Shown here in pieces: positions 20,973 through 60,939 of a DNA stretch of 64,000 nt. The stretch spans positions 886-64,885 of the forward strand of contig JBDRKX010000057.1 in the NCBI GenBank assembly GCA_043813605.1, read 5' to 3'. The DNA is from Elusimicrobiota bacterium. Its GTDB lineage: Bacteria > CG03 > SLGR01 > JBDRKX01. The notes under the pieces are model-generated. The model had not been told where the DNA came from. It worked only from the letters and a program-made list of their open reading frames with translations, and ran no database searches. Every line of letters starts with the position of its first letter. Position 1 is the stretch's first letter. A program made the position numbers and the translations under genes.

Positions 20973-21973
20973 TTTTTATTTCCCAGGAACTGTATCAGCA
21001 ACTGCACATTATTAGCGCTGTTCATACCTATGTACATTATATAGGCCCTGCTCTTCATTAACAACCTGAGCGCAATCCGCATCCTGCAGAAAGCCTTTTT
21101 TGCAAGTTTTACCATATTACTGAAAGAGACCTCCAGATCAAGATACTCGATCACCTGAGGAAGTCCGATCCCGACTACAAGGTTCCCGAAAAGCGCAGCG
21201 AACATGCGCATTTTATTGATTTTTTTAATTTTTGCATAATTAAAAGCCCATCTTTTTCCTATTATAAGCATATCAGGAATTACAGGTTCGGCTATCTTTT
21301 CTCTAAACCACCGGACATCAAGAAGCACTTTTTTACCATATTTTCTGCGGTGCAGTTCATAAACATATTTGTCTGGAATATTGTCAAACCTTTCCCTTTC
21401 TTCTTCCTTGAGCCCAATTCTTACAGGAAAAGGCATCATTTTCAGATTTTTATCCATAAGTACTATGTCATCACTGAAAAAAAACATGTTTTTATTGCCT
21501 ATTAATTCCATCAGAAATGTAGTTTTGCCGCTGCCGGTAGGAGCTGTTATGATCACACCTCTGCCGTTATAATTTAATCCTAACCCATGTACACGGTAAA
21601 GGGATTTTTGCTCCAGCATCTCGCCGGCAACTGACAGAACGGCCAGATATCCTATCTCGTGAAGTAAATCGTTATCAAGTGATACCATTTTTATACGGCT
21701 GTTCGTTCTATCATATTCCGAAAGACCTTTTCCCTTATAGTCTATATATTTTTTATTCCCCCCGTCATACATCGTGAATTCTCTGTGCCGCAGAACAGCC
21801 GGTTTATTTTCCACTAACGAATAATCGGGCTGCTCCCGTGCAAGAACTACCGAAAATTCTACTATTCTTGCCTGATCAATATAAAAATAGGAGAAATCCT
21901 TCCTGAGCTTTTCTATTATCTCTTCAGGCCCGGACACATCAATCTGAATCCCATAAAATTCCAGCCTTATCAT
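20969..21973 (-). CDS. HprK-related P-loop kinase (HPr kinase C-terminal-domain-like)
   Basis: VHGLGLNYNGRGVIITAPTGSGKTTFLMELIGNKNMFFFSDDIVLMD matches the HprK C-terminal kinase core with a Walker A motif. Trimmed to the internal Met (MIRLEFYG) that abuts the upstream GT2 stop. Confidence 0.6.
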   Translation of the reverse strand: MIRLEFYGIQIDVSGPEEIIEKLRKDFSYFYIDQARIVEFSVVLAREQPDYSLVENKPAVLRHREFTMYDGGNKKYIDYKGKGLSEYDRTNSRIKMVSLDNDLLHEIGYLAVLSVAGEMLEQKSLYRVHGLGLNYNGRGVIITAPTGSGKTTFLMELIGNKNMFFFSDDIVLMDKNLKMMPFPVRIGLKEEERERFDNIPDKYVYELHRRKYGKKVLLDVRWFREKIAEPVIPDMLIIGKRWAFNYAKIKKINKMRMFAALFGNLVVGIGLPQVIEYLDLEVSFSNMVKLAKKAFCRMRIALRLLMKSRAYIMYIGMNSANNVQLLIQFLGNKK

Positions 21974-22977
21974 CGCTTTCCTTTCAAGTACATCAGAAAG
22001 CCGCTGATCAGACCCAGACCGTAACAAAAATGACTGAATGGAAACAGCATGAAGCATATTATCATAACCGCAAGGTTTTTCTCCCGTTTTATCAGTATAT
22101 CCAGTGCATACAGCATGCATAACAGACCATAAACGATAACAGGAAACAATGCCACAGGCCATATCGCGTTAATAACCGGAAATAATATAATATATAACGC
22201 AAAAAAACCGGGCAAAAGGAATACGAATCCAAAATTCATAGTGTCCAGCCTCATTGAAATGGCGCGGCCCCGGCCGGAATTGAAAACCTGGCAGCAATAC
22301 TGCCATAGTTTTTTTCTACGAAAATGGTAAACAATTATCTCCGGTGAAAAAACCATCCTGCAGTCCCTTTTTCCCAGTTTCTTCAGCAGATGATTCTCTT
22401 CATTGCAATAGAGGCGCATATCAAAAAGTTCATTGTCGGAATCCAGCGCACTCCTGCGCATACCGAGGTTACACAGGATTAATGATTGTTGATCTGCCCT
22501 ATAATCACCTGCCGATACGTTATACCTCTTTTTCATTCCTGCAGCACCCCAGAAAGAACTAAGGACATAACCCTGAGCTCTTTCAAATAAACTGCTGTCG
22601 GCAGGGGTCAGATTAGGCCCCCCTATGATTTGGACATCAGGGTATTGTTTAAATTTCTGCAATACCTTTTCTATAAAATCTTCTTTAACAGTTGCATCGT
22701 CATCTATAAAATACAGGATCTCACCCGAAGCTTCTGATACAGCATAATTCCTCAGCATAGATTTACATTCCTCATCAGCTATAGAAACCTTTACACTGAT
22801 CATGCTTCTAAGTTCAGCCACTTTTTTTTCGATATCATCATTAAGGCTGTCAATAACCAGGACAAGCTCTACTTCCGCCCTGTCTTCAATATGTTTTAGC
22901 GCGAGATATATACTGGCAAGACAATTTGCTATATATTCGTATCTTTTGTTCAGAATTATTATAATAGACAATTTCAT
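21970..22977 (-). CDS. Family 2 glycosyltransferase with C-terminal TM helices
   Basis: LSIIIILNKRYEYIANCL...LVLVIDSLND...FIDDDA GT-A motifs. Hydrophobic C-terminal 90 aa. Confidence 0.75.
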   Translation of the reverse strand: MKLSIIIILNKRYEYIANCLASIYLALKHIEDRAEVELVLVIDSLNDDIEKKVAELRSMISVKVSIADEECKSMLRNYAVSEASGEILYFIDDDATVKEDFIEKVLQKFKQYPDVQIIGGPNLTPADSSLFERAQGYVLSSFWGAAGMKKRYNVSAGDYRADQQSLILCNLGMRRSALDSDNELFDMRLYCNEENHLLKKLGKRDCRMVFSPEIIVYHFRRKKLWQYCCQVFNSGRGRAISMRLDTMNFGFVFLLPGFFALYIILFPVINAIWPVALFPVIVYGLLCMLYALDILIKREKNLAVMIICFMLFPFSHFCYGLGLISGFLMYLKGKR

Positions 22978-23032: not shown

Positions 23033-23803
23033 TTACTTGCTTCTTTTAAGCTCGGCCTGCAGCATACGGCCGATCCCATATTTCATCTTTTGCAGTTCTG
23101 TATCGCGGAAATGATCCCGGGGGAAAGGGCTTTTTATTTCAATTTCTTCAATTATCCTCGCCGGCTGCCGGCTTAATACGAGTATTTTATGTCCCAATGT
23201 TAAAGCTTCTTCTATGCTGTGTGTTACATATACTATAGTTGTTTTCTTCAAATTCCATACTTTCAGCAGATATCGCTGAAGGAAGTTCCTTGTCTGAGCA
23301 TCCAATGCCCCGAAAGGTTCATCCATAAGAAGAACTTCGGGCTCTACAACAAGAGCCCTTACTATTGCCACACGCTGCTTCATCCCGCCGGACAGCTGAT
23401 ACGGATAAAAATTGGCAACATGTTCAAGGCGAACAAGATACAGGAGCTCATCAGCCAGTTTACTTCTTTCATTTTTCGACATGCCTTTTGCCGCAAGCCC
23501 GAATTCGACATTCTTTTTTACGGTATACCAGGGGAAAAGAGCATATTCCTGGAATATTATTGTCCTCTCAGCTCCGGGTGCAGAGACAGGACTTCCGTTA
23601 AAAAGAACGCGGCCGGCAGTAGGAAAAATAAAACCGGCTATCATATTAAGTATTGTACTTTTACCGCATCCCGAGGGCCCGATCAAGACAACTATTTCAC
23701 TTTCATTTACTGAAAACGAGACATTATTCAGTGCCTGTATATGCCGGTCTTTAGAAAGATTGCGATATACTTTAGAGACTTTTTCAAAAATTATTTTTGA
23801 CAT
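23033..23803 (-). CDS. ABC transporter ATP-binding protein (NitT/TauT family-like)
   Basis: Walker A LIGPSGCGKST. ABC signature LSGGMKQRVAIVRAL. Walker B LLMDEPFGALD. Confidence 0.9.
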   Translation of the reverse strand: MSKIIFEKVSKVYRNLSKDRHIQALNNVSFSVNESEIVVLIGPSGCGKSTILNMIAGFIFPTAGRVLFNGSPVSAPGAERTIIFQEYALFPWYTVKKNVEFGLAAKGMSKNERSKLADELLYLVRLEHVANFYPYQLSGGMKQRVAIVRALVVEPEVLLMDEPFGALDAQTRNFLQRYLLKVWNLKKTTIVYVTHSIEEALTLGHKILVLSRQPARIIEEIEIKSPFPRDHFRDTELQKMKYGIGRMLQAELKRSK

Positions 23804-23810
23804 ATTATTC

Positions 23811-24605
23811 TTACTCCGTAAAACTGAACTTAGCCCATGGAACGAGGACGTTTTCTATTTTTGTTAAAGCATAATACATAGCTATATTTGCCAGGCCTAT
23901 ACATATCATACCTACGAATATTCTCTCAGTTATTATAACATTTCTTCCTTCGAGTATCAGATATCCCAATCCGTCGGGTGCGGATACAAATTCCGCCGCC
24001 ACAATTATAAACCATGCAAATGACAGACCCGATCGCAATCCAAAAAATATTCTCGGTAATACGGCCGGGAATATCACCTTGCGTAGGATTGAAAATCCAT
24101 CCGAACCCAGCGCCCTTGCAGCCCGTTTGTACTCTTCAGGCACCGCATGTACACCGATAATAGTATGGAGCAATATAGGAAAAAATACTCCGATGAAAAT
24201 AATAAAGGATTGCTGAGTATTAGTTATCCCGAACCACAAAAGACTTATGGGTATCCAGGCAACGGGAGGTATGGGCCTTAAAAAATCACATATACCTCTA
24301 ACCTGCCAGTATGTTCTTTTAGAAAGCCCTGTAATAATTCCTATAGATACGCCGCATAACGCAGCGGCCGAAAAACCTATCATTATTCTCCTGATACTTG
24401 CAGCAAAATGGGTGAGCAGTATGCCATCAGTTAGCAACATCCAGAATTCAGCAACGACTTTTGAAAACGGAGGCAGGTAAATCGCGGCCCGCGGTTCGAA
24501 CCTGGGATAAATACATCTCGCAAAAATTTCCCACACAATCAGTATCAGGAAAAGGAGATCGAGTTTACGCGCTGCCACGGCTATTCTTTTAATGCGCGCT
24601 TTCAT
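23811..24605 (-). CDS. ABC transporter permease (binding-protein-dependent inner membrane component)
   Basis: Six hydrophobic segments and an EAA-like loop (ARALGSDGFSILRKVIFPAVLP). Start trimmed to MKARIKR. Confidence 0.8.
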   Translation of the reverse strand: MKARIKRIAVAARKLDLLFLILIVWEIFARCIYPRFEPRAAIYLPPFSKVVAEFWMLLTDGILLTHFAASIRRIMIGFSAAALCGVSIGIITGLSKRTYWQVRGICDFLRPIPPVAWIPISLLWFGITNTQQSFIIFIGVFFPILLHTIIGVHAVPEEYKRAARALGSDGFSILRKVIFPAVLPRIFFGLRSGLSFAWFIIVAAEFVSAPDGLGYLILEGRNVIITERIFVGMICIGLANIAMYYALTKIENVLVPWAKFSFTE

Positions 24606-25441
24606 TTCACATCCCATGGAAGGAGCCATTTTTTTGTTTTTATTAAAATGGAGTCCATTATCAGCCCCAGTATCCCTATGACAACCATCCCGAGTACAGC
24701 CATCTGAGGCAGTCCCCTGTTCCTCGAATCGAGTATCAAGTACCCAAGTCCTGATACGGATCCCACCATCTCGGCGCCCACGACAACCACCCAGCAGAAA
24801 CCCAGTGAAAGACGCAGACCGGAGAAAATCTCAGGGAGCACCGCGGGGAAAATAACTTTTTTTAAAAGATCCAGGCGACTCGCTCCCAGACTTAACGCCG
24901 CCTGCTTCAGTCTATAATCAATACCGTCAATTCCATAGAGAGTATGCAATGCGATAGGAAAAATACCGCTTATTACAATAACCATTATCATCTCTGCATT
25001 GCCGATGCCGAACCATATCAGTCCAAGCGGAATCCAGGCAAAAGGAGGGACGGGCCTCAACAGGACTATTATTATTTTTATCCTGTCCCTCAGAGGTTTG
25101 CTTATTCCCATTAAACATCCCAAACCGATGCCCAGTAAAGCCGCAATAGAAAATCCCAGCAAGATACGCTGCAGGCTGTCTCTAATATGCACCAGTAGTT
25201 CTCCTCTTTTCAAGAGATCGGCGCCCATTTCCAGGACCTTAAGCGGTGAAGGCAGTATATGCTGGGCCATGGTATTGAATTTCGGATGTATGTATCCCGC
25301 AAATAACTGCCATAACAGGACAAATATTATCAGAGAAACATATTTTATAAGGAATTTCATACGAATAGCCTCAAAAACCTTTCTCATTTTACTAATAGCA
25401 ATTTTTTTCTGTATATACACAACTGCCGAATTCCTTTTCAA
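24602..25441 (-). CDS. ABC transporter permease (second transmembrane subunit)
   Basis: Paralog of 23811-24605 with EAA-like loop AALSLGASRLDLLKKVIFPAVLP. 4-nt overlaps at both ends. Confidence 0.8.
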   Translation of the reverse strand: MKRNSAVVYIQKKIAISKMRKVFEAIRMKFLIKYVSLIIFVLLWQLFAGYIHPKFNTMAQHILPSPLKVLEMGADLLKRGELLVHIRDSLQRILLGFSIAALLGIGLGCLMGISKPLRDRIKIIIVLLRPVPPFAWIPLGLIWFGIGNAEMIMVIVISGIFPIALHTLYGIDGIDYRLKQAALSLGASRLDLLKKVIFPAVLPEIFSGLRLSLGFCWVVVVGAEMVGSVSGLGYLILDSRNRGLPQMAVLGMVVIGILGLIMDSILIKTKKWLLPWDVK

Positions 25442-26880
25442 TAAATACTGAATTCTCCGGCAAGCTCTAGCTTCTTCTCAAGATCAGGTGTCTTATACCT
25501 GTAATAATCACAGAATATGTCCGGGCCGTCTTGGATCAAGTCTCTGCACATATCGGCCGTATGGCAAGCCGCAATCACAAATCTAAGGCTTGTTACATCG
25601 GTGGGTATCCGCGCTACATCTGATCCTGTTTTATAAAATTCTTTACTTTTATTTATTAGTTTCTTGACCGTATCAGGCTGAAAAGTACAGCTGTGTTCAA
25701 GCGGTAAGAACAGTTCGCCCTTATACTGTTCATATAATTTTGTAACCGGATATGGTTCCAGCCACCTCAGCTGGACACCGCACTTCAGATCCTCTTCCAA
25801 ATATCGTCTTATATCAAGCGTATCTTTAAAATCGTCCAATGTTTCAAAAGGGAATCCCCACATCAATCCGGTCTCAACAATATCTATGTAATCCGTGGAT
25901 TTTTTAATTATTTCAAGCCATTTTTCTACATTATCGCCTCTTTTTATCTTTTCAAGCACCCTGTTGCTGCCTGTATCCAATCCGTAAAATATGGTCTCAC
26001 AACCACTGGTACTAAGCGCTTCCAAAAGTTCTTCATCCATGCACTCGGCACGGGTCATACAGAACCACTTTATAGACAGGTTTTCCATTTTTATCCTGCG
26101 GCAGAGATCCAGTGTCCTTTGCTTATTGACGGTAAATGTCGGATCCACAAAAAACATATGCTTCATACCGTATTCCCTGTCGAGCATGATCATTTCTTCT
26201 ACAACATTCTCTATGGAATTAAACCTCACCTTGCTGCCGTCAAAATGACTCAGGCTGCAGAAATGGCACCCGAATGGACAACCCCGCTGTGTAAGAACGG
26301 ACGCTATCTGGTATTGCTTGCTGAAATCTATAATATGGTAAGCCGGTTTCGGTATCCTGTCAAGATCCGTTATATGCGGTCTGCGTTCATTGACATACAC
26401 TTCGCCGTTTTGCCTGTAGACTATGCCCTTGATGTCTTTCAGCCCGGCAGACCCGGAAGCAACGACCTCAACAATCGTATCTTCAGCTTCCCCCACAGCG
26501 ACTACATCAATAAATTCGAATTTCCTGACAAGCTGTTCTGCTACTCCGGAAGGCCCTATCCCGCCGAGCAGCATCATTTTTTCAGGAAACCTTTTTTTAA
26601 GCTCTTCGCTCACTCTTACCACAAAAGGCAGATGCACAAGATGGCAGCCTATCCCTATTATATGAGGGGCTGTATCTATTGTATTTATGAAACTATCTAT
26701 TTCTTCTTTAAGCGTTTTCTTGTGGTCCAGACAAAACTCGCTGAAACTGACATTATAGCCCGCCTTTTCAAGCGATGCAATGAGCAGGAATATACCTACT
26801 GTATTATGTTTATACACTACTCTTTCATCAAAATTCTTGGCAATCGTAATATTAACCAGTGTTATATTGTTCATAAACAC
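25438..26880 (-). CDS. B12-binding domain radical SAM protein (subfamily A, paralog 1)
   Basis: ITLVNITIA N-terminus, GIGCHLVHLPFVV, LGGIGPS, VGEAE, LTQRGCPFGCHFCS CxxxCxxC, RWLEPYP. Conserved C-terminal DYYRYKTPDLEKKLELA. Confidence 0.8.
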   Translation of the reverse strand: MFMNNITLVNITIAKNFDERVVYKHNTVGIFLLIASLEKAGYNVSFSEFCLDHKKTLKEEIDSFINTIDTAPHIIGIGCHLVHLPFVVRVSEELKKRFPEKMMLLGGIGPSGVAEQLVRKFEFIDVVAVGEAEDTIVEVVASGSAGLKDIKGIVYRQNGEVYVNERRPHITDLDRIPKPAYHIIDFSKQYQIASVLTQRGCPFGCHFCSLSHFDGSKVRFNSIENVVEEMIMLDREYGMKHMFFVDPTFTVNKQRTLDLCRRIKMENLSIKWFCMTRAECMDEELLEALSTSGCETIFYGLDTGSNRVLEKIKRGDNVEKWLEIIKKSTDYIDIVETGLMWGFPFETLDDFKDTLDIRRYLEEDLKCGVQLRWLEPYPVTKLYEQYKGELFLPLEHSCTFQPDTVKKLINKSKEFYKTGSDVARIPTDVTSLRFVIAACHTADMCRDLIQDGPDIFCDYYRYKTPDLEKKLELAGEFSIY

Positions 26881-26890
26881 CTCCCTATGT

Positions 26891-28339
26891 CTAATAGATA
26901 CTGCATTCTCTGACTGTGTCCAGTTTTGCTTCCAGTCCGGGAGTATAATACCTGTAATAATCAGAAAAAATATCCCTGTTCTCTTTAATGAGATCCCCGA
27001 AAATTTCCGCCATATGAAACGCTGCGGATATATATCTCAGGTTTGTTATATCCAAAAACTTGTGATTAACAGAAGAATTCCCGGTACCCTTATAATCAGC
27101 GACTTCTTCTTTAAGCATTTTCTTAACCAGATGCGGTTTAAAAATAGAACTTTCTTCTTCAGGCAGAAAAAGAGTATCGCGATACTGCCTGTAAAGACTG
27201 GTGTTTACATATGGTTCAAGCCATCGCAGGTTAACTGTATAACCAATATCTCCGGTAATATAGTTATATATGCGCATAGTCTTTCTGAAATCCTCCGTTT
27301 CCTCAAAAGGGAATCCCCATATCAGGCGCACACGGGCCTCTTTAAAATATTTAACTGATTTTTCTATTACACTGATGGATTTATCCAGTGAAAAATTCTT
27401 TCTGATCTTTTTTCCTACATACTCACTGCCGGTCTCCATACCAAAAAAAACAGATTCACATCCTGAATCACTCATAGATTTCATCATCTCTTCATCTATT
27501 AACTCCGGCTGCACTATACACTCCCACTTAATATCAGGGCACTCATCTCTGACCGCTTCACACAGAGACAGAACCCTTTCTTTATCATAACAGAAGAATG
27601 AATCTCCGAAAAATATCCGGCGCAGGCCTTTCTGTATCGACAACTGCTTAAGCTCTTCTATAACGCTCTCTATACTCCTCGATCTCAATCTCTGCTGCCA
27701 GAAATCTCCCGCACTGCAAAACGTGCAATTATGGGGACATCCGCGCTCGGTAAAAACAGTGGGTATCTGATATTTTTCTATCCTGACTTGCGAAAGATCG
27801 AACCCATCTAAACTATCGGGAACTTCGGCGCATTTCCTGAGTTCATTTGCATATACCACCCCGTCCTTACGGTATACTACTCCCGTGATACCCTCAAAAT
27901 CCCCCGCCTCGTTACGCACAAGTTCTGCCATTGTAACCTCGCCCTCACCGATAACAACAGCATCCAGAAAACTGAACTTTTCCATAAGTCTGACAGCCAC
28001 TGCGGATGGCCCGATACCGCCCAGTAATATCACCTTTTCCGGACATTTTTCTTTAAGATACCGCGCAACTGAAACCGCAAAAGGCAGATGCACAGAATGA
28101 CAGCCTATTCCCACCAGCTTAGCGGGAGAATCGGCAAATTTTGTAAACGCGGATATCTCTTCATCATACGATAAGTCATAGTCAAGATTATGTTCATAGA
28201 GGTTTACCGTGTATCCGGCCTTTTCAATAGCTGCTGCAACATAATAGGCCCCCATTGATTTTTTTTCAAAGCCGCCTAACTCAGCAAAAGGCCATTTTGT
28301 TGTAATATTGATCAGAACAATATCTTCACTCATTATCAC
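26891..28339 (-). CDS. B12-binding domain radical SAM protein (subfamily A, paralog 2)
   Basis: GIGCHSVHLPFAV, LGGIGPS, IGEGE, FTERGCPHNCTFCS. C-terminal DYYRYYTPGLEAKLD. Confidence 0.8.
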   Translation of the reverse strand: MIMSEDIVLINITTKWPFAELGGFEKKSMGAYYVAAAIEKAGYTVNLYEHNLDYDLSYDEEISAFTKFADSPAKLVGIGCHSVHLPFAVSVARYLKEKCPEKVILLGGIGPSAVAVRLMEKFSFLDAVVIGEGEVTMAELVRNEAGDFEGITGVVYRKDGVVYANELRKCAEVPDSLDGFDLSQVRIEKYQIPTVFTERGCPHNCTFCSAGDFWQQRLRSRSIESVIEELKQLSIQKGLRRIFFGDSFFCYDKERVLSLCEAVRDECPDIKWECIVQPELIDEEMMKSMSDSGCESVFFGMETGSEYVGKKIRKNFSLDKSISVIEKSVKYFKEARVRLIWGFPFEETEDFRKTMRIYNYITGDIGYTVNLRWLEPYVNTSLYRQYRDTLFLPEEESSIFKPHLVKKMLKEEVADYKGTGNSSVNHKFLDITNLRYISAAFHMAEIFGDLIKENRDIFSDYYRYYTPGLEAKLDTVRECSIY

Positions 28340-28404
28340 CTCCAGATCCCGGCTGCCGGGTGCAGATAAATGAAACGCTGTTATAATTGCAGATACTTTC
28401 TATC

Positions 28405-29586
28405 TTATTTATTTTCCGGGCACGAATAATCCGGGTATGGGGGCTCTGCCACTTTACCGTCCCAGTTTTCTGGAAGAAAAACCGGTTTTTCAGGAACCTT
28501 CCATCCCAGTTTTTCAAAAGTCTTTGCCATATATTCAGGAACCATTATTTCCTTCATTTCTTCTTCAGTCCAGGCTTTATTTATCCGGCCCTGTTCATGC
28601 AGGACTTTGATGATACGGGAATCCTCTTTTACCCAGAAATCAGAATGTATATACCTGAATGTAGGCGGATATGAAGTAAGATATCTGGCAGTCTGGTCTA
28701 CTATAAGTTTTCTTTCATAGGCTTTTATACGCGGGTCCTTCCTGTAAAAATCGGCGGCGCCCTCAGTATCGTATCTGGCATATAATACAGCTTCCACAGC
28801 CGCATCAGCCAGAGCCTGGACGACATCAGGCGCATTCTCGTGTATTTCTTTACGGATGAAATCAAACCCGGTATTAAAAAAGTAGGGATAACCGGTATCT
28901 ATCTTTTTTCCCAGGCCTTTCTGTTCGGCAAAAGTTATATGCGGATCCCATAGCACCACGGCATCTAAGCCTTTAGGCAATAACTGGGCGTCACGCATAC
29001 TCATGCCTGCAACTCTAAAATCCTTATCCCTTAACAGCTTTTTATTCTCTGCCATTGCCGTAAGATAGAATTCCGCATATGATCCCAGTGTAGTGCCCAC
29101 AACAGTTATATTATTTTGTTTCAGGTCCTCCGGTTTTTTTATCTTGGACCTGGGATTTACCAGCATCGCAATTTCGTGGTTAACTGCTGTTAAAGCATAG
29201 GCCCTTACCGGCGCGCCTTTATCGACAGTCAGCCAGAATGGAAAATCTCCGTAATGGGTGACCTGCGTCTGGCCTCCGAGAAATGCTTCCACTATAGGAG
29301 GGCCTGATAAAAAACTTGAAAATTTTGCAGGAAGACCGCGTTTTTCAAGCAGCTTTTTTTCTTTTATTATCCCGAAACATGCTGAATACCCCGGTATATC
29401 GGCAAAATAACCCACACTTATCGGAAGCCAGCCCTTAGATTCCAGCCAATCAAGTGATTTCTGGCTTACCTGTTCATACGGGAGAGGCCAATCCCATTCT
29501 GTCTTATCCTCGGCAAAACACTGCGTGGATACTGCAAGCATAAACACAGCAACAATCACCAGCAAAAATTTTGTTTTATTATTCAT
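28405..29586 (-). CDS. ABC transporter periplasmic substrate-binding protein (NMT1/THI5-like, NitT/TauT family), secreted
   Basis: Signal peptide MNNKTKFLLVIVAVFMLAVSTQCFA. About 390 aa soluble domain. It sits in an operon with two permeases and an ATPase. Confidence 0.65.
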   Translation of the reverse strand: MNNKTKFLLVIVAVFMLAVSTQCFAEDKTEWDWPLPYEQVSQKSLDWLESKGWLPISVGYFADIPGYSACFGIIKEKKLLEKRGLPAKFSSFLSGPPIVEAFLGGQTQVTHYGDFPFWLTVDKGAPVRAYALTAVNHEIAMLVNPRSKIKKPEDLKQNNITVVGTTLGSYAEFYLTAMAENKKLLRDKDFRVAGMSMRDAQLLPKGLDAVVLWDPHITFAEQKGLGKKIDTGYPYFFNTGFDFIRKEIHENAPDVVQALADAAVEAVLYARYDTEGAADFYRKDPRIKAYERKLIVDQTARYLTSYPPTFRYIHSDFWVKEDSRIIKVLHEQGRINKAWTEEEMKEIMVPEYMAKTFEKLGWKVPEKPVFLPENWDGKVAEPPYPDYSCPENK

Positions 29587-29613
29587 AATACCTCCTGTAA
29601 TCCCACACTATTA

Positions 29614-31029
29614 TCAGCTGGGAACTATTTTATTCGTAAGTTTAACTTTTTCTTCAAGATCAAGTGTCTTGTACCTGTGAAAATCCGGAAATATCTCCGG
29701 ATTTTCATTGATAATATCTGAAGCCATCGAGTATACATGCGAATGGCTGATTACGCTTCTCAAACTGATCGTGTAATCGTATTCACCTGCATGAGAGAAT
29801 GTAGCACTGACCTGCTGCCTGCCTTTGTCCCTGTCGTAAATAGCCGAGAGCATCTCCGGTCTGTATAAGGTATCTTTATATTTTTCGAAATACGGCGTAT
29901 TGACAAAAGGCTGAAACCAGGTAAGCTGGACAACACAGCCGAGTTCATTCTTGAGATAATCATGTACTTTTATGGTCTGTTTCAAGTCTTCCAGGGTCTC
30001 AAAAGGAAATCCCCACATAAGACTGACCTCTATACGAGAGAAATACTTCTTGCTCATCTCAATGACTTTAAGTCCCTGCTCTACGGTAAATCCGCCTTTG
30101 ATCTCCTTTAAGACAGCATCGCTGCCGGATTCCAATCCATAAAAGATCGCATTAAAATTCACATCAGCGAGCATGCTGCACGCTTCTTCATCTATAAGAT
30201 CCAGCCGGCCATAAGTCTTGTATTCTTTCATACCTGAATTCTTACGTATCATTTCGATATAGCTTTTAAGCCTGGGTTTGTTGAGCATAAAACATGAATC
30301 GGCAAAAAAGACCTTCTTAACACCCATTGTTTCAAGTATTTTAAGCTCTTCAGATATCCTTTCCGGCGAACGGTAGGTGATCTTCCTCTTCCAGTAACCG
30401 CCCAGACTGCAGAACGGGCATCCGAACGGACATCCGCGGGCGACCATGACCATCGGCTGTCTGTATGTTGCGACATCAAGATATTTATAGGCCGGCATCG
30501 GGATATCATCAAGATCTTCTATTCTCTCCATAGCCGGGGTCTGTATTATCCTTCCTTCTTTCCTGAATACGATCCCGCCGATATCGCTGAAATCGCGATT
30601 ATTTTCCATGAGCCGTTTTACAATAACAGGAAAATTCAGCTCCGCCTCACCGACGACTACCATGTCTATCTTATCAAACTCTACCATAAGTTTATCGGCT
30701 ACAAGCGATGGGCCTATTCCTCCCAATATGATGAATTTTTCGGGATATCTCTTTTTTATCTCCTGTGATATTTTCACTGCAAACGGCAGATGGATAGAGT
30801 GACAGCCTATACCGATGATCTTTTCAGATTTTTCAAAAAACTTAACTGCTGTTTCCAGTTCTTTTTCCGCGCCTATTTCGAAATCAAGAAAATATTCCCT
30901 GAAATCGACTTCTATCCCGACCTGTTCAAGACACGCGATTATACTGAAAATACCGACAGTACTCAGGCGATTGACCAGAACGCCGTCAAACGTCGTCTTT
31001 GTCGTTATATTTATTAAAGTTATATCCAT
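29614..31029 (-). CDS. B12-binding domain radical SAM protein (subfamily A, paralog 3)
   Basis: ITLINITTK, GIGCHSIHLPFAV, LGGIGPS, VGEAE, MVARGCPFGCPFCS. C-terminal DFHRYKTLDLEEKVKL. Confidence 0.8.
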   Translation of the reverse strand: MDITLINITTKTTFDGVLVNRLSTVGIFSIIACLEQVGIEVDFREYFLDFEIGAEKELETAVKFFEKSEKIIGIGCHSIHLPFAVKISQEIKKRYPEKFIILGGIGPSLVADKLMVEFDKIDMVVVGEAELNFPVIVKRLMENNRDFSDIGGIVFRKEGRIIQTPAMERIEDLDDIPMPAYKYLDVATYRQPMVMVARGCPFGCPFCSLGGYWKRKITYRSPERISEELKILETMGVKKVFFADSCFMLNKPRLKSYIEMIRKNSGMKEYKTYGRLDLIDEEACSMLADVNFNAIFYGLESGSDAVLKEIKGGFTVEQGLKVIEMSKKYFSRIEVSLMWGFPFETLEDLKQTIKVHDYLKNELGCVVQLTWFQPFVNTPYFEKYKDTLYRPEMLSAIYDRDKGRQQVSATFSHAGEYDYTISLRSVISHSHVYSMASDIINENPEIFPDFHRYKTLDLEEKVKLTNKIVPS

Positions 31030-31056: not shown

Positions 31057-32115
31057 TCAGAAAGCAAGCTGCATCTGAACAGCAACCACGTCAGCGGGTT
31101 TTGCGCCGTAATTATCATCAACACTGCAGGTTGTATAATTCACTTTCAGATCGTTCAGGGCATTACCCTTGAGTGAACATGTAATACCGAGCGTCAACGT
31201 ATGAATGCTCGATTCACTCTGGTCTGCATCAGGATCATACATATCATATCTGGCGACAGCTTCAACAGCATCCATAACCATGTAGCCGGCCGTAAAATAC
31301 ATGCCCATTAGCTTCTGTTCCGCTATTGTATATGTCTGGCCTGCCTCTAATTCTGAACTCGATTCGTAATTTGCCTGCAGGTATTCGCAAATAAGCCTGA
31401 GTTTATTTTTTTTGTAAGAAATATCGACTCCCATGGCGTTCTCTGCAACATCTTTTTCTACGATACTTCCCAGACTGGATGTCAGATCCACTCTTGAAGA
31501 ACCCATAAAACCCGACGCGCCGATCTGCAGGCATTCAGTGGGGCTTTTAAAAACTCTAAGACAGTAATCCAGTTTTCCGTTATCGTCAAAATTATCAAGC
31601 CCTGTCCCGCCGGTAACAAATAGAAAATACCCGCACGGCTTCCCGTGACATTTCATATTACCCCACAGTTCGACACCTTTATCATATGCGTAAGAACCCT
31701 TTCTGCCCATATTTGTCCATATCGAATTGATAGCTTGCGCCCTGTTTATTAACGGGAGTTTCGGCAGAGTTCCCGTACCCGTTAATGTGAATTTATACCA
31801 AGTCTGACCTACTTTTATGTTAAATGCAGGATCAATTTTATAATTAACCCATGCATCCAGAAGTGTAAACGGATGGAAATAAGTGCCATCTCCCCATTCA
31901 CTGAGTACCATATAGTTCATATCAGGCGTAAGGTTTCCGAGCGCTCCCAGCCTCGCTCTCTTCAGGTTTTTTGTGACCTCAAAATCGTCATTGTCGGAAT
32001 ACTGCCACCACAGATGTGTAAATCCGAACGGCTTTATAGTAGGTTCCGCCTGACATGTCCCTGCAAAAAACACAAAAAGACTCCCAACAAGCATAAAAGC
32101 AAATAATTTCCTCAT
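31057..32115 (-). CDS. Outer-membrane beta-barrel porin-like protein (secreted, C-terminal Phe)
   Basis: Signal peptide MRKLFAFMLVGSLFVFFAGTCQA. Alternating amphipathic beta-strand pattern. Terminal ...VAVQMQLAF. Start trimmed to MRKLFAF, which has a GGAGG ribosome-binding site 7 nt upstream. Confidence 0.6.
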   Translation of the reverse strand: MRKLFAFMLVGSLFVFFAGTCQAEPTIKPFGFTHLWWQYSDNDDFEVTKNLKRARLGALGNLTPDMNYMVLSEWGDGTYFHPFTLLDAWVNYKIDPAFNIKVGQTWYKFTLTGTGTLPKLPLINRAQAINSIWTNMGRKGSYAYDKGVELWGNMKCHGKPCGYFLFVTGGTGLDNFDDNGKLDYCLRVFKSPTECLQIGASGFMGSSRVDLTSSLGSIVEKDVAENAMGVDISYKKNKLRLICEYLQANYESSSELEAGQTYTIAEQKLMGMYFTAGYMVMDAVEAVARYDMYDPDADQSESSIHTLTLGITCSLKGNALNDLKVNYTTCSVDDNYGAKPADVVAVQMQLAF

Positions 32116-32127: not shown

Positions 32128-32199
32128 ATAATAGTTGTTACAGTTATGCAGCCATAGAAAGACCATCTTTCAAATGGCTGGACAACACTAGTTCTTTTT

Positions 32200-32413: not shown

Positions 32414-33793
32414 ATGAAACAATTTTTTATTGGAGTGGACGTTTCTGAAGCTAGATTTGATATGGCTTTCAGGGATACCAATGGACAGGCTGTTAGACCT
32501 GATTCTTCTTTCTCTAACTGTCCTGACGGCATCAGAGATCTTATTGGATGTTGTATCGCTACGGCTTCTCTCATTGGAAAAAGAACCAAAATTGTAATTG
32601 GAATGGAATCCACTTCCAACTTCCATAAAAATCTTGCTTCTGCTCTCTATTCCTCCAAACGCAAATTTGAGGTCCATGTTATTAATCCTCTTACTATTAA
32701 GCAATTCAAAAAAATGCATCTCAAAGTCTACAAAACCGATAAACTTGATGCCCACATGATTGCCCTCTACCTTGCAAAAATGACTCCCAAAGCATCTTTC
32801 CAGCCTCTTCCCGGACAGGAAGAACTCAAAGAGATTACTCGCCTCAGAAGATCCTATCAGGAAGAAACTACTAAATTTAAAAATCGGCTTCGACGCTTGC
32901 TTAGAATTTATTTCCCCGGATACAAAAAACTTCTTGGAACTAAAATCTCTGTAAAGTTTCTTGTCGCTTTTTCTGAACTCAATTCCCCTGAGGAAATACT
33001 CTCCTATGACATGACTGACCTCGCAAATACTTCCATAGCTTGCAGGCATAAAATTGGCACGCCTTTTGCTAAGAAACTCTTTACGCTCGCTCAAAAAGCT
33101 CCGGTTAAATCTATTCCTAAAGGCAACTCTCTTGTCATCAAATGGACAGCAGAACGGCTTCTCCAACTTCAATCGCAAATTAAAATTCTTGATAAGGAAA
33201 TCATATCTATGCTTGAAGCTTTCTTTCCTGCGCATAATCTTCATTCTATTCCCGGCATCGGGCCCATTTCCATTGCTACGATTATCGCTGAAACCGGTGA
33301 TATTAAAAGATTTTCTACTCCGGAAAAGTTTATCGGTTATGTCGGTCTTTATCCTGTCGTATGGGAATCCGGTGAAATGAAAGTCAGGTTCCAAATGACT
33401 CGCAAGGGGAATAAATCCCTCAAGATGACTTTCCTGGTCGCTTCTGCTGCGGCCAGAAGATTTAATCCGGTCATTAGAAACATGTATGATAGGCTCCGCA
33501 ATAGAGGTAAATCTAAAAAAGCTGCGGGGGGCGCTATAGCCAGAAAATTGGCTACTATTGCTTTTACTATCCTTAACAATGATGAAGCCTGGGATCCCAA
33601 GAAAGCTGTGGCTGGATTGATTAAATCTCAACAAATGGCTGAGGAGTATATTAAAAAGGAAAACAGGCTCCCCTTTGAGGTTATACCTCAATACGCGGTC
33701 TCTGCCGCAAGTTCTTCTTCCGAGGATAATTCGAGGCAGCTCTGTTCCCTGGAATCTATTATACAAAGTGGAGGTAATATTGAAAACCCCTGA
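32414..33793 (+). CDS. IS110-family transposase (DEDD-type)
   Basis: N-terminal FIGVDVSEARFDMAF (RuvC-like DEDD). C-terminal IPGIGPISIATIIAETGDIKRFSTPEKFIGYVGLYPVVWESGEMKVRFQMTRKGNKSLK is the hallmark IS110 motif. Confidence 0.9.
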   Translation: MKQFFIGVDVSEARFDMAFRDTNGQAVRPDSSFSNCPDGIRDLIGCCIATASLIGKRTKIVIGMESTSNFHKNLASALYSSKRKFEVHVINPLTIKQFKKMHLKVYKTDKLDAHMIALYLAKMTPKASFQPLPGQEELKEITRLRRSYQEETTKFKNRLRRLLRIYFPGYKKLLGTKISVKFLVAFSELNSPEEILSYDMTDLANTSIACRHKIGTPFAKKLFTLAQKAPVKSIPKGNSLVIKWTAERLLQLQSQIKILDKEIISMLEAFFPAHNLHSIPGIGPISIATIIAETGDIKRFSTPEKFIGYVGLYPVVWESGEMKVRFQMTRKGNKSLKMTFLVASAAARRFNPVIRNMYDRLRNRGKSKKAAGGAIARKLATIAFTILNNDEAWDPKKAVAGLIKSQQMAEEYIKKENRLPFEVIPQYAVSAASSSSEDNSRQLCSLESIIQSGGNIENP

Positions 33794-33977
33794 TTCTTTA
33801 TACAATTTATTATCGTCTATTTTAATTGACAACTGTTATTATATTTCCTTATCTTATTTTACCACCTGTGTTACTTACTAAAAATATTATAAACAATACT
33901 AACGATTATTATAAGTGTTTATTTCCGCCTTTAATTGACTTTTTTCCCTCTTAATTATTAACGGATATTCCAAGTAA

Positions 33978-43189: not shown

Positions 43190-43202
43190 TTCAAGTAATC
43201 TT

Positions 43203-43979: not shown

Positions 43980-44010
43980 GATATACCGGTCTTTGTATAT
44001 ACCAGCAGTT

Positions 44011-48534: not shown

Positions 48535-49977
48535 ATGACAGATATATCTATTATCAACATAACTATGGCGAAATATTTCGGCGGGCGGGTCGTTTATGAA
48601 CGGACCTCGGCCGGAGCTGTTTCTCTTATCGGGGCACTTGAACATGCAGGCTATAATGTTAACTTCCACGAACATTTCATAGACCACAGAAACACTTTAG
48701 CCGAAGAAGCTGAAAAACTTATTCCCTTTATCGATATTTCTTCCGGGATTATCGGAATGGGATGCCATTCTGTACATCTTCCTTTCGTGGTTATGGCATC
48801 AAAAGAACTGAAGGCACGCTTCCCCGATAAAAAAATAATCCTCGGCGGCATAGGCCCTTCCAGTGTCGCAGATAAACTGCTTGATAAATTCGATTTTATT
48901 GATGCCATTGTAGTCGGGGAAGCGGAAGAAACCATCATTGAAGTAATGCGCAGTATCGGGTCCACTCTCGCGGGCATTAAAGGTGTCGTCTACAGGGATG
49001 TTTCAGGAGTGCATATCAATGCGAATAGACCTCCCATCGAAGATCTTGATACTATCCCATTGCCGGCTTACCATATTGTAAATTTCGAAGAGTATGAAAT
49101 ACCTACTATAATAACTTCGCGGGGATGCCCTCACAGATGCCCTTTCTGCAGTCTTAGTCTTTTCTGGGGCAAAAGAACCAGGTACCGATCCACGGAAAGC
49201 AGCATCAGAGAACTGAAACTGCTTAAAGAAAAATACGGAGTGAAATATGTGTTTTTTGCGGATCCGACATTCAATGCAGACAAACAAAGAGTGATCGACC
49301 TTTGTGCCGCCATGAGAACTGAAAACCTTGATCTCAAATGGGAATGTCTTGTCAGATCAGACCTCATGGACGACGATATTATGAGAGAAATGAGCCTAAG
49401 CGGTTGCGATGCTGTTTTTTTCGGCTTGGAAACAGGCAGTGAGCACGTATACAAAAAAATAAAACGGGGCGCTACTACAGTTGCGGATTCGATTGAAGTC
49501 ATTCGGAGATCATCGGAATTCTTTAAGACTACGGAGGTCGGACTTATGTGGGGTTTCCCCTTTGAAACACTTGATGATTTCAAAAAAACTCTCGCAGTCA
49601 GGAATAAACTGGAAACAGAACTATGCACACAGGTGCAGTTGAGGTGGCTCGAGCCTTATCCGTGTACGGATCTGTTCAAGGAATACAGTAACGAGCTCTT
49701 CCTGCCCAAAGATGTGAGCCTTGTATATAAAAAAGATGATGTTACACAGGAAGTGGCAAAAGGGAAAGAATTTTATGCTGGAGACAAGAACATCTCTAAT
49801 ATCAGTATCGTTTCGGATGTAACAAATGTTCGGCTTGTTATTGCCGCATCCCATACAGCTTCCTTCTGCCGCGATATCATAGAAGAGAATCCGTCTATTT
49901 TTCCCGACTATTACAGGTACAGAACCCCTGACCTGGATAAAAAACTTGAACTTGCCAGAAAATACAGCATATATTAG
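48535..49977 (+). CDS. B12-binding domain radical SAM protein (subfamily A, paralog 4)
   Basis: MTDISIINITMA, GMGCHSVHLPFVV, LGGIGPS, VGEAEE, ITSRGCPHRCPFCS, RWLEPYP. C-terminal DYYRYRTPDLDKKLELA. Start trimmed to MTDIS. Confidence 0.8.
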   Translation: MTDISIINITMAKYFGGRVVYERTSAGAVSLIGALEHAGYNVNFHEHFIDHRNTLAEEAEKLIPFIDISSGIIGMGCHSVHLPFVVMASKELKARFPDKKIILGGIGPSSVADKLLDKFDFIDAIVVGEAEETIIEVMRSIGSTLAGIKGVVYRDVSGVHINANRPPIEDLDTIPLPAYHIVNFEEYEIPTIITSRGCPHRCPFCSLSLFWGKRTRYRSTESSIRELKLLKEKYGVKYVFFADPTFNADKQRVIDLCAAMRTENLDLKWECLVRSDLMDDDIMREMSLSGCDAVFFGLETGSEHVYKKIKRGATTVADSIEVIRRSSEFFKTTEVGLMWGFPFETLDDFKKTLAVRNKLETELCTQVQLRWLEPYPCTDLFKEYSNELFLPKDVSLVYKKDDVTQEVAKGKEFYAGDKNISNISIVSDVTNVRLVIAASHTASFCRDIIEENPSIFPDYYRYRTPDLDKKLELARKYSIY

Positions 49978-60922: not shown

Positions 60923-60939
60923 TACGGAATATAGGCCGT

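Follow-up and report, generated by a model that had tools for sequence, protein, structure and literature searches.

Cobalamin-binding radical SAM enzymes (rSAMs) are encoded inside an operon for a NitT/TauT-type ABC importer in an uncultured anaerobe, known as an Elusimicrobiota metagenome-assembled genome (MAG). This locus raises the question of whether, and how, import and radical chemistry are linked. The window, that is the whole stretch of 64,000 nucleotides analysed, was compared with related loci and with a control set.

Layout of the importer-rSAM unit

Along the minus strand, from 32115 to 23033, the gene order is porin, A3, binding protein, A2, A1, permease 1, permease 2 and ATPase. 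A sequence-only reading had given this order from A3 onwards, with the rSAM genes inside the importer operon; the order and the ORF coordinates were confirmed by ORF, Pfam and NCBIfam analysis. The first gene of the unit (31057..32115), missed in that reading, encodes an outer-membrane porin (Porin_O_P-like) with the signal peptide MRKLFAFMLVGSLFVFFAGTCQA. It matches Pfam PF07396 at 38.6 bits (cutoff 20.9), its start was read from the sequence, and it precedes A3, in the same orientation, with 27 nt between them. According to Pfam, porins of the Porin_O_P type are anion/phosphate-selective.

A3 (29614..31029, minus strand, 471 aa, cluster motif CPFGCPFC) is a class-B (B12-binding) rSAM, as are A2 (26891..28333, minus; ATG 28333, the ORF extending to GTG 28339) and A1 (25438..26874, minus; ATG 26874, the ORF extending to GTG 26880), and all three match PF02310 and PF04055. 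The periplasmic binding protein (28405..29586, minus) is encoded between A3 and A2. Pfam and NCBIfam assigned permease 1 (24602..25441, minus; NitT/TauT type), permease 2 (23811..24629, minus; likely start ATG 24606, from the sequence) and the NitT/TauT-type ATPase (23033..23803, minus; PF00005). Both permeases belong to BPD_transp_1, which, at the level of sequence, marks the transporter as a type-I importer.

The eight same-strand genes are spaced by 0–73 nt, each with Shine-Dalgarno context. Gene boundaries had been described as overlapping by 4 nt, which holds at two junctions only: the A1 stop overlaps the permease-1 TTG at 25438–25441, and the permease-1 stop overlaps the permease-2 ATG (as ATGA) at 24602–24606. 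The remaining junctions are gaps of 7, 10–16, 27, 27 and 65–73 nt. Terminator-like sites within the unit were not above chance (9 found, 9.4 expected). We infer that the eight genes are co-transcribed. An IS110-family transposase gene (32414..33793, plus strand; PF01548 and PF02371), inserted directly upstream, marks the present 5′ boundary. A 562-aa minus-strand ORF at 32144–33832 was rejected, as Pfam identified it as the antisense shadow of this gene.

The best NCBIfam matches of the permeases were SaoP, TauC, NtrB and SsuC, with permease 1 below all cutoffs, and the ATPase scored 258 bits against SaoA (cutoff 360), 240 against TauB and 225 against NtrCD. SAO (SaoA/P/B/X), or Selenocysteine-Assisted Organometallic transport (bioRxiv 10.1101/2022.07.06.499078), gave the top-scoring models for ATPase and permeases alike, and is likewise a NitT/TauT-group importer of anaerobes with an unusual substrate. 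The scores are, however, under all Sao cutoffs, and the unit differs in having no Sec/Cys gating residue, CC/CU motif, MerB-like lyase or single-permease architecture.

Recurrence of the unit in other genomes

Homologues of the binding protein formed 122 clusters, 12 of them at least 62% identical to it, and the protein founds a small clade, clade 1. All seven loci with a close homologue (59–75% identity: the window, L001, L003/L010, L007, L008, L011 and L174) have A-type rSAMs adjacent. L001 and L011 are labelled Omnitrophota and L003/L010 is a 'Planctomycetia' MAG, with metagenomes also among the sources; the association spans at least three phylum-level labels. The porin is included in five of the seven, and its orthologues (44–46% identity) head the unit in L001, L003, L007 and L174. 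Gene order within the unit is permuted and different in every locus, but where a contig spans the whole unit, porin and ATPase always enclose the rSAMs.

Importer genes are enriched over the control set: none of 80 loci around generic B12-rSAMs (814 kb) carried a NitT/TauT permease or binding protein. As the binding protein was the route to six of the seven clade-1 loci, the association is free of sampling bias only when read from binding protein to rSAM. Two of four loci anchored on the rSAMs had a different NitT/TauT importer and two had none. L090 and L092, found in this way, encode a different, NMT1-type binding protein, and L090 also has a different outer-membrane channel. The trio of A3, A1 and an aminotransferase also occurs importer-free, flanked by O-antigen-type ABC2 exporters and lpt/kds genes, which indicates that import is an optional feed that the pathway can do without.

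The rSAM-importer arrangement picked out in the sequence-only reading is thus a conserved gene unit, not previously described. As rSAM and importer genes form a real, recurring unit, a shared small-molecule substrate, also proposed in that reading, is the most economical interpretation, and the importer's cargo is probably the substrate of the A-type rSAMs.

Enzymes, binding protein and neighbouring genes

The window encodes ten B12-rSAMs. A1–A4 form a single paralogue group, with 36–52% mutual identity and at most 30% to the six others. A4 (48535..49977, plus strand; Pfam and alignment) is detached from the unit, with ankyrin and PMT_2/RmlD genes as neighbours, and alignment supports the ATG at 48535 given earlier. 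It does share its C-terminus with A1–A3, from which a recent dispersal had been deduced. This motif, F.DYYRY.TPDL..K, is, however, common to the whole A subfamily in the alignment, and is therefore uninformative on the age of the fourth copy. A4 is 52% identical to A1, which finds closer relatives elsewhere (63% identity in L003), so that A4 is not its sister in the tree; from its sequence, A4 is an old duplicate.

The A3 clade has 100% bootstrap support, and A3 orthologues (59–66% identity; L001, L007, L008, L011, L174, L090, L091 and L173) all adjoin a binding-protein or aminotransferase gene. A1 orthologues occur in L003, L174, L092 and L090 (54–63%). A2 is a divergent paralogue (43% identity to A1, 36% to A3) with no closer orthologue found in the related loci, and groups with P0168 at 67% bootstrap.

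Subfamily-A enzymes combine the B12 domain with a CxxxCxxC motif. The best Foldseek matches of the A1 model (pLDDT 92) were AprD4, MgmA, CysS, TsrM, OxsB and TokK, all class-B rSAMs and mostly C-methyltransferases (MgmA, CysS, TokK, TsrM), with the non-methylases AprD4, a diol dehydratase and the top match, and OxsB also among them. The order of N-terminal B12 domain and rSAM core, and the Foldseek fold, are shared with the iterative small-molecule enzymes CysS, TokK/ThnK, GenK and Fom3 and with MgmA. A-type rSAMs are, however, only 17–21% identical to any solved class-B member and, unlike class-B C-methyltransferases, have their own C-terminal domain and motifs (GIGCHSxHLPF, WGFPFET, F.DYYRY.TPDL). 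None of those named is known to be encoded within an importer operon, unlike A1–A3. By analogy, the side-by-side paralogues A1–A3 suggest successive alkylations.

The binding protein (393 aa) has a Sec signal peptide, cleaved between STQCFA and EDK, and was assigned an SsuA/TauA fold from NCBIfam, PDB and Foldseek comparisons. NCBIfam assignments of the binding protein and the rSAMs are all under the curated cutoffs; for TIGR01728 (SsuA family) the binding protein scored 86.5 bits (cutoff 163.5). In Pfam, OpuAC and Phosphonate-bd matches were sub-threshold, and NMT1 was not returned, so the earlier description as NMT1/THI5-like gives way to SsuA and TauA as the nearest sequences and folds. The closest PDB sequence is TauA 6ssy (E = 1.7e-5). 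The AlphaFold model (pLDDT 94) matched SsuA 3ksj/3ksx and TauA 6ssy best, with ThiY and the thiamin-binding protein 4nmy also among the matches. Farther clades occur in plainly catabolic contexts, including TauE-family genes.

The TauA ligand-recognition residues, including the amine-binding Glu106, have been described (PMC6906117). Aligned to TauA, the protein keeps the backbone anion-binding positions (G95, G113, G168-S169), while Gln30 is replaced by Phe and Asp205 by Gly, as in SsuA. The acidic E138 adjoins the site aligned with Glu106, at which the alignment places I139. The ligand is probably a small polar solute, predicted to bear an anionic group together with an amine or oxo function.

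Of seven loci in which A3 is complete (the window, L001, L007, L008, L090, L091 and L173), five encode a class-I aminotransferase, but none was found in the window itself; the L174 sequence stops shortly past the unit. The aminotransferase is AspAT-like, its nearest solved relatives being aspartate and aromatic aminotransferases. L091 and L173 have a 2-hydroxyacid dehydrogenase gene, L091 and L007 AMP-binding or CapK-like adenylating enzymes, and L174 a carrier protein plus KR/PPTase; a few kb upstream, L008 encodes TauE, PAPS reductase and a CysN-like GTPase. In the window, Pfam identified a non-B12 rSAM (41879–43189), a SAM methyltransferase (43203–43979) and a B12-rSAM (44011–45429), all on the minus strand; L001 has orthologues of all three on the flanks of its importer unit (43%, 48% and 41–42% identity), and the 41879-type rSAM recurs in L003, L007, L174, L090, L091, L092 and L173. 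Around the unit, the window encodes GT2/GT4/GT9, Wzy-like, DegT, RmlD, PMT_2 and C-methyltransferase genes. In L001, L008, L092, L091 and L173 the surroundings comprise GT, Wzy, flippase, ABC2-exporter or lpt/kds genes, and most loci are embedded in glycan/LPS genes. The glycan link is one of neighbourhood, and such islands are mosaic, here with IS110 at the unit's edge.

Possible uses of the imported solute

The reading we favour, tentatively and at a probability of about 0.4, is that the importer takes up a small polar compound, probably similar to an amino or oxo acid, which the rSAMs then tailor, with C-methylation as the likeliest chemistry, for use in decorating envelope glycans. The porin, the secreted SsuA/TauA-fold binding protein and the NitT/TauT-type importer would bring into the cytoplasm an amino-acid- or 2-oxo-acid-like solute with an anionic group and an amine or oxo function. 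A3, A2 and A1 would then modify its unactivated carbons, most likely by successive C-methylations. In sister loci the AspAT-like aminotransferase, in some joined by the 2-hydroxyacid dehydrogenase, may interconvert amino, oxo and hydroxy forms, and the product would serve the glycan/LPS assembly encoded around the unit, either as a building block or as a decoration.

The main rival, which we consider unlikely though worth weighing, is O2-free scavenging of an organosulfonate, organophosphonate or similar compound, with the rSAMs (and the aminotransferase) cleaving or rearranging it to release S, P, N or carbon, in place of the O2-dependent SsuD/TauD, unusable by strict anaerobes. The hosts are indeed anaerobic candidate phyla. 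The ssuEADCB operon likewise interposes an enzyme gene between those for the binding protein and the permease, and in phn operons the radical SAM enzyme PhnJ is encoded together with an ABC importer. The unit shares with ssuEADCB/tauABCD (NitT/TauT, TC 3.A.1.17) the transporter family, the binding-protein fold, SsuA and TauA being closest in both sequence and fold, and an enzyme (here a putative one) for the imported solute encoded within the transporter operon, at the ssu position. The enzymes there are flavin or Fe/2-oxoglutarate oxygenases, however, whereas here they are cobalamin-type radical SAM proteins, and the unit has two permease paralogues and a dedicated porin. The phn (C-P lyase) precedent, with PhnJ acting on an imported organophosphonate, differs in that PhnJ falls outside the class-B (B12) rSAMs, the other Phn subunits are absent here, and the binding protein, with its sub-threshold Phosphonate-bd match, is no PhnD. 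Scavenging would also suit the anion/phosphate-selective porin family, the sulfur genes upstream in L008 and the TauE-associated catabolic contexts of distant binding-protein clades. Against it, Gln30 and Asp205, the sulfonate/taurine-recognition residues of TauA, are not conserved in clade 1, and sulfite reductase, sulfite exporter and phosphonatase are all absent inside the unit. The units sit amid methyltransferases, more rSAMs, carrier proteins and adenylating enzymes, in a glycan-biosynthesis neighbourhood and not among sulfur starvation genes, and the importer-free trio amid ABC2 exporters and lpt/kds genes fits biosynthesis better.

Less probable still is mere adjacency, in which the importer would take up an ordinary nutrient and the rSAMs, shuffled into its operon in a hypervariable envelope-glycan island, would have endogenous sugars or lipids as their substrates. 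As adjacency would predict, the island in the window is mosaic, with ten B12-rSAMs, many glycosyltransferases and IS110 at the unit edge, gene order varies in every locus, and the rSAM trio can stand importer-free. Such shuffling fits poorly with an association found in every clade-1 locus across phylum-level labels, recurring with a second, unrelated binding-protein subfamily and absent from all 80 controls, and with rSAM genes held within the porin-to-ATPase bracket by tight spacing or overlapping stop and start codons.

Import of a corrinoid piece, lower ligand or methyl-donor precursor as cofactor supply, which the sequence-only reading had also suggested, is very improbable. The ten cobalamin-type rSAMs of the window would fit such a need, and NitT/TauT relatives import vitamin precursors, ThiY and 4nmy being among the fold matches. 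Corrinoid uptake normally uses BtuFCD-type systems, however, and this importer is not of that type; neither the window nor 11 related loci showed a cobalamin, TPP or other riboswitch, and the importer association is specific to subfamily A and not to B12-rSAMs generally (0/80). Equally improbable is methylation of a ribosomal peptide or secreted protein, with the ABC genes unrelated or serving immunity or uptake: ApyD, a RiPP enzyme, is the best NCBIfam match of A1–A4 (146–178 bits) and Clostridium sp. KNHs214 has a relative, at 35% identity, within a RiPP-like cluster, but the ApyD scores are far under the cutoff of 750, no precursor-like small ORF was found in or beside the unit, recognition element, leader peptidase and exporter are all absent from it, and the partner aminotransferase and dehydrogenase act on free acids.

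The favoured reading, import followed by tailoring, would share its salvage-and-decorate logic, by analogy, with lic-type choline uptake, in which phosphocholine is placed on LPS or teichoic acid; lic differs in transporter family and enzymes, and its kinase, cytidylyltransferase and LicD were not found here. Import in this organism and its counterparts looks like a salvage feed, given that the enzyme trio operates importer-free in some lineages, and it may supply envelope-glycan decoration.

A predicted importer operon enclosing class-B radical SAM genes

Eight genes lie on the minus strand between window positions 32115 and 23033, as determined by Pfam and NCBIfam searches and by reading of the sequence, in a window of 41% G+C that is coding almost wholly on that strand. 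They encode, in order, a Porin_O_P-like outer-membrane protein (31057-32115, Pfam), the B12-binding radical SAM (rSAM) protein A3 (29614-31029, Pfam), a substrate-binding protein (SBP; 28405-29586, NCBIfam), the B12-rSAMs A2 (26891-28333) and A1 (25438-26874; both Pfam), two BPD_transp_1 permeases (24602-25441 and 23811-24629; both Pfam and NCBIfam) and an ABC ATPase (23033-23803, Pfam and NCBIfam). Stop and start codons overlap at the A1/permease-1 and permease-1/permease-2 junctions, the remaining gaps are 7 to about 70 nt, and a Shine-Dalgarno sequence precedes every gene. Terminator and promoter scans of the unit gave chance levels only: nine terminator-like hairpins were found against 9.4 in shuffled sequence, and a stem-loop past the SBP gene (28348-28360) folded no better than shuffles (z = -1.0). 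An Rfam search of the window and 11 related loci at gathering cutoffs identified no riboswitch or other element, and the sole match of an E-value-mode search of the operon was a chance snoRNA (E = 0.15). A complete IS110 transposase gene (32414-33793, plus strand; DEDD_Tnp_IS110 and Transposase_20 domains) sits between a sugar C-methyltransferase gene and the porin gene and now bounds the unit upstream; its insertion may have severed the unit from its original promoter. A 562-aa ORF on the minus strand (32144-33832) proved spurious, being the antisense of this transposase gene.

Both permeases carry PF00528, with SaoP, TauC, NtrB and SsuC as top NCBIfam matches (E = 1e-36 to 1e-52), and the ATPase matched SaoA (258 bits), TauB (240) and NtrCD (225); all these scores fell below equivalog cutoffs. 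On the permeases, the ATPase and the SBP fold, the importer is a type-I importer of the NitT/TauT family (TC 3.A.1.17). The placement of rSAM genes inside such an importer unit, proposed in a sequence-only reading, is confirmed, with the porin gene added and some details corrected. Import of organometallic compounds by a SAO system was considered since SaoA and SaoP were the top NCBIfam matches. It was ruled out by scores against cutoffs (SaoA 258/360, SaoP 157-179/295, SaoX 27.7/300), by motifs (no Sec/Cys gating residue or CC/CU motif was seen in the SBP or permease sequences read) and by gene content (no MerB-like gene, SaoL, was found in the window). The porin is predicted to belong to the Porin O/P family of phosphate/anion-selective porins from a PF07396 match (38.6 bits, cutoff 20.9) that covers only residues 59-155, profile positions 24-122 of 370. 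SBP carries a Sec signal peptide and the porin likewise has a signal peptide; the unit therefore encodes a complete outside-to-cytoplasm route.

A1-A3 and a detached paralogue, A4 (48535-49977), consist of an N-terminal B12 domain followed by an rSAM core (PF02310 and PF04055). They form a paralogue group of their own, subfamily A, with 36-52% mutual identity and at most 30% identity to the other six B12-rSAMs of the window. The CxxxCxxC cysteines (C199/C203/C206) are invariant, and further motifs typical of the subfamily are GIGCHSxHLPF, WGFPFET and a C-terminal F.DYYRY.TPDL. The subfamily is small (75 clusters at E ≤ 1e-40), comes from Elusimicrobia and Omnitrophica MAGs, and has no characterised member. 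Foldseek matched a structure model of A1 (pLDDT 92) to AprD4, MgmA, CysS, TsrM, OxsB and TokK (E = 1e-20 to 1e-23, TM about 0.65, 17-21% identity). By layout and motif A1-A4 are assigned to the class-B rSAMs, and the A1 model shares its fold with solved members. All named class-B families tried (ApyD, HpnJ, BchE, PhpK, MgmA/MJ0865, BzaD and the ladderane rSAM) scored below equivalog cutoffs, the best match of A1-A4 being ApyD (146-178 bits against a cutoff of 750). C-methylation is the commonest chemistry among class-B rSAMs; AprD4, the top structural match of A1, is a class-B-like enzyme not known to be a methylase. The reaction of A1 cannot be deduced from homology, and cobalamin binding and methyl transfer are predictions only.

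A4 had been read as a recent dispersal on account of its common C-terminus. That trait proved to be family-wide, and A4 is an old duplicate. It shares 52% identity with A1, which is more closely related to proteins of other genomes (63% in the related locus L003; L001 has two A1/A4-type copies). Neighbour-joining analysis clustered A1 with L003 and the homologues P0162, P0153 and P0167 (67% bootstrap) and placed A4 elsewhere.

Conservation, travelling partners and glycan surroundings

The synteny extends to related genomes. Among loci of clade 1, which comprises the window SBP and its close homologues, A-type rSAM genes adjoin the SBP gene in all seven with readable flanks, orthology being assigned by BLAST. 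Relative to porin-A3-SBP-A2-A1-permease-permease-ATPase in the window, the orders are porin-SBP-A3-A1/4-aminotransferase-A1/4-permease-permease-ATPase in L001, porin-rSAM-rSAM-SBP-A1-permease-permease-ATPase in L003 and L010, porin-A1/4-A3-SBP-permease-permease-RidA-x-ATPase-aminotransferase in L007, aminotransferase-A3-SBP-permease in L008, A3-SBP-permease-permease in L011 and porin-A1-A3-SBP-permease-permease-ATPase in L174. Gene order is thus shuffled, and the rSAMs lie within the porin…ATPase bracket wherever a contig spans the whole unit. In the reverse direction, searching from the rSAM alone led to four loci. Beside an A1-type gene of L092 (Omnitrophica WOR_2) lie genes for a permease, an ATPase and two binding proteins of the NMT1 type. 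L090 encodes an outer-membrane channel and one binding protein of this type some 2.6 kb downstream of its closest A1-type gene, and L091 and L173 (Elusimicrobia) have no importer near the rSAMs. A NitT/TauT permease or binding protein was found in none of 80 control loci around generic B12-rSAMs 26-33% identical to the A-family (814 kb in total, 36 loci of at least 10 kb). These controls were the yield of a metagenome scan seeded with the A-family alignment, which was dominated by the generic RGCPxxCxFC pattern and gave no new A-family loci, and were reused as a negative set. Since the importer occurs in A-loci and in 0/80 controls, the association is specific to subfamily A.

Other genes travel with the unit. 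Five of the seven loci having a complete A3 gene also encode a class-I PLP enzyme that resembles AspAT and aromatic aminotransferases, often directly upstream of A3 and nearly abutting; this partner is absent from the window, and the L174 sequence ends shortly past the unit. A non-B12 rSAM of the type starting at 41879 in the window is a nearly universal companion. In L001 the unit is flanked by a B12-rSAM (43%) and a SAM methyltransferase (48%) corresponding to the window genes starting at 44011 and 43203, and in L092 a B12-rSAM and methyltransferase pair takes the same position, its rSAM only a distant relative of the 44011 type; the window copies of all three types lie at 41879-45429. Further recurring neighbours act on carboxylic acids. 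These are 2-hydroxyacid dehydrogenases (L091, L173), CapK-like or AMP-binding adenylating domains (in L007 and, as B12-rSAM fusions, in L091), a carrier protein that has KR and PPTase domains (L174), an enzyme resembling diaminopimelate decarboxylase (L003) and RidA (L007). Unusual fusions were seen in L091 (16186-19323 and 21093-end; AMP-binding, B12-binding and radical SAM domains in 1045 and 1067 aa) and in L003 (3422-6202; a 926-aa protein joining a B12-rSAM to a 41879-type rSAM).

Glycan and LPS assembly genes (GTs, Wzy, flippase, ABC2 exporters, lptABC, kdsA/D) surround these genes in the window, L001, L008, L092, L091 and L173. SBP and A3 match proteins of an Elusimicrobiota MAG at 100% identity. 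The window itself forms an envelope-glycan island, with RmlD and epimerase genes and genes for GT2, GT4 and GT9 glycosyltransferases, a DegT aminotransferase, a sugar C-methyltransferase, PMT_2 and a polysaccharide deacetylase. It contains ten B12-rSAM genes (starting at 3866, 5360, 8502, 25438, 26891, 29614, 37037, 44011, 48535 and 55562, the last with a TPR tail), two SPASM rSAM genes (9902, 54441) and further rSAM genes, one with a MoaA-like N-terminus (41879) and one of the SPL family (58882). The rSAM density is very high across 3866-57238, within one 64-kb glycan island.

Several further features of the island were recorded. Three minus-strand paralogues (686-2266, 2272-3864 and 6902-8494; 526-530 aa, 38-43% identity) combine an N-terminal multi-pass membrane part with a C-terminal propeller-like repeat; their only Pfam match is a sub-threshold Wzy_C, and they may be polymerase- or ligase-like glycan-island proteins. 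Ankyrin-repeat proteins are encoded at 41040-41771 and 46671-48236 (minus; 243 and 521 aa), one directly beside A4. Just downstream of the importer unit, among glycosyltransferase genes, a 397-aa protein (20969-22162, minus) has a P-loop (APTGSGKTT) and a weak match to the HPr-kinase C-terminal domain. A 149-aa cupin-like ORF (52976-53425, plus), flanked by RmlD-like and epimerase genes, looks RmlC/FdtA-like, judging by its sequence. Four minus-strand genes at 58882-63260 encode the SPL-family rSAM (449 aa), a PNP_UDP_1 phosphorylase-like protein, a coiled-coil, Lys-Glu-rich 603-aa protein without a family and a DUF2062 protein. Neither a hopanoid reading, suggested by a superficial resemblance to HpnH/HpnG at 58882-60922, nor a ladderane-lipid reading of the island found support, the matches being SPL-family or far below cutoffs. 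The nitrogenase-paralogue/rSAM clusters of Elusimicrobia (bioRxiv 10.1101/765248) have no relevance, as nif-like genes are absent here.

The binding protein and its candidate ligand

SBP is nearest in sequence to TauA and SsuA, and Foldseek with its structure model (pLDDT 94) returned SsuA and TauA, then NrtA/CmpA and Thi5 (E = 5e-16 to 1e-11 for these five), and ThiY. It scored below the curated family cutoff of TIGR01728 (86.5 bits against 163.5) and far below those of the TauA models (24 bits against 304 and 490). Judged by its modelled fold, SBP is a NitT/TauT cluster-F binding protein outside every named specificity. The NMT1/THI5 label of the sequence-only reading was not upheld: the window protein has no PF09084 match at E ≤ 0.001, and Thi5 is only a distant fold neighbour. 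Some SBP homologues have weak precomputed PF09084 matches.

TauA contacts its ligand through Gln30, Gly61, Gly79, Thr132, Glu106 and Asp205, of which Glu106 binds the amine (PMC6906117). These contacts were transferred to SBP via a phmmer sequence alignment, not a superposed structure. At this level of mapping, SBP keeps the backbone anion-binding positions (G95, G113 and the G168-S169 turn), and its acidic E138 adjoins the residue that aligns to Glu106; F61 stands in place of Gln30 and G240 in place of Asp205, where SsuA also has Gly. The aligned residues are compatible with a ligand bearing an anionic head and perhaps an amine too.

The SBP family is small (122 clusters among 5.8 billion proteins) and falls into three clades by gene context. 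Clade 1 (59-75% identical), from Omnitrophota, a 'Planctomycetia' MAG, Elusimicrobiota and metagenomes, is the rSAM-associated clade. Clade 2 (50-55%) is mostly from Alphaproteobacteria (Xanthobacteraceae, Afipia, Hyphomonadaceae), and its best-resolved loci are plain importer operons with FolD, MTHFR-like, two PanB-like and TauE-family proteins and a PrpR-like regulator; in a Myxococcota member, an AspAT-like aminotransferase gene adjoins the SBP gene. Clade 3 (≤43%) is found with a biotin carboxylase set, a BKACE enzyme and an SDR. Nearly all pocket-mapped residues are common to clades 1 and 2, whereas clade 3 deviates and is more TauA-like. A common ligand, or closely similar ones, is probable for clades 1 and 2. 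More speculatively, the clade-2 ligand meets C1-tetrahydrofolate enzymes transferring onto or from 2-oxo acids, and these enzymes and the cobalamin radical enzymes of clade 1 could both add one-carbon units to an oxo-acid. The ligand might come to light from the clade-2 cluster of an Afipia or Xanthobacteraceae strain that can be cultured.

The clade-2 cluster, apparently undescribed, is conserved around position 10001 of five alphaproteobacterial loci (L012, L013, L016, L019, L020); its PanB-like proteins score below the PanB cutoff, and its PrpR-like regulator is of the sigma-54 type. Clade-3 proteins (around position 10001 of L027, L038, L051, L062 and others) resemble TauA at the residues aligned with its Gln30 and Thr132. 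Their neighbours include a PycB-like carboxyltransferase, biotin carboxylase, BCCP, an SDR, an MFS transporter and an IclR regulator, and the BKACE enzyme scores as 3-oxoadipate:acetyl-CoA acetyltransferase.

Possible functions of the unit

The reading we favour, at a probability of roughly 0.4, is an import-and-tailor unit. The porin, SBP and ABC importer would take up a small polar, acid-like solute, and A3, A2 and A1 would alkylate its unactivated carbons. An aminotransferase or dehydrogenase, where encoded, would fix the alpha-function, and the tailored product would serve to decorate envelope glycans. Since the enzyme trio also occurs in loci that have no importer, uptake would be an optional form of salvage.

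The main rival, itself unlikely, is an O2-free analogue of ssu/tau/phn nutrient scavenging. It is supported by the likeness of SBP to SsuA and TauA, by a gene order resembling that of ssuEADCB and by a porin of the anion type, and it is weakened by the importer-less versions embedded in biosynthesis genes. Quite unlikely is a role of subfamily A as an O2-independent substitute for the SsuD/TauD oxygenases, by which strict anaerobes would split or rearrange an imported sulfonate- or phosphonate-like zwitterion; cobalamin-assisted radical chemistry could then attack a C-S, C-P or C-C skeleton within a complete porin-to-cytoplasm pathway in Elusimicrobiota and Omnitrophota. Mere adjacency of importer and rSAMs is also improbable, as the association arose with two different SBP subfamilies, which argues for function over chance. 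Import of a cofactor, which the sequence-only reading had offered beside import of a substrate, seems very improbable. A small share of the probability falls to none of the readings given here. Modification of a peptide by the A-type rSAMs is favoured by a 35%-identical relative in a RiPP-like cluster of Clostridium sp. KNHs214 but is highly unlikely here, there being no precursor-like ORF: the unit's intergenic regions yielded no convincing candidate. That relative is the nearest cultured one of subfamily A, and its cluster (L175, GCA_000744935.1, 5458-19038) holds a 44-aa ORF, several SPASM rSAMs, two B12-rSAMs, an M50 peptidase and a methyltransferase.

Importers of the NitT/TauT type that have enzymes embedded in them are known already, as are class-B rSAMs. 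The open-access literature searched gave no description of units joining B12-rSAMs to NitT/TauT importers, or of Omnitrophota glycan loci rich in rSAMs; neither the combination nor the dedicated porin nor either protein subfamily is described there. Class-B rSAMs are among the largest enzyme pools without known substrates, and substrate discovery is the bottleneck. Here a soluble secreted SBP is genetically tied to three orphan rSAMs, so that it gives experimental access to the substrate of A1-A3, which its ligand would nominate. The unit is a rare case in which a whole uptake route (porin, SBP, permease and ATPase) is joined at operon level to radical tailoring enzymes, in phyla, Elusimicrobiota and Omnitrophota, with almost no cultured members. 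If the subfamily-A rSAMs substitute for SsuD/TauD, they would represent a new reaction type among class-B rSAMs and a new anaerobic route of organosulfur or organophosphorus assimilation; if the unit scavenges, it would be a new pathway of nutrient use by anaerobes. Should the biosynthetic reading be true, a salvaged poly-alkylated acid would be present on the envelope of Elusimicrobiota and Omnitrophota.
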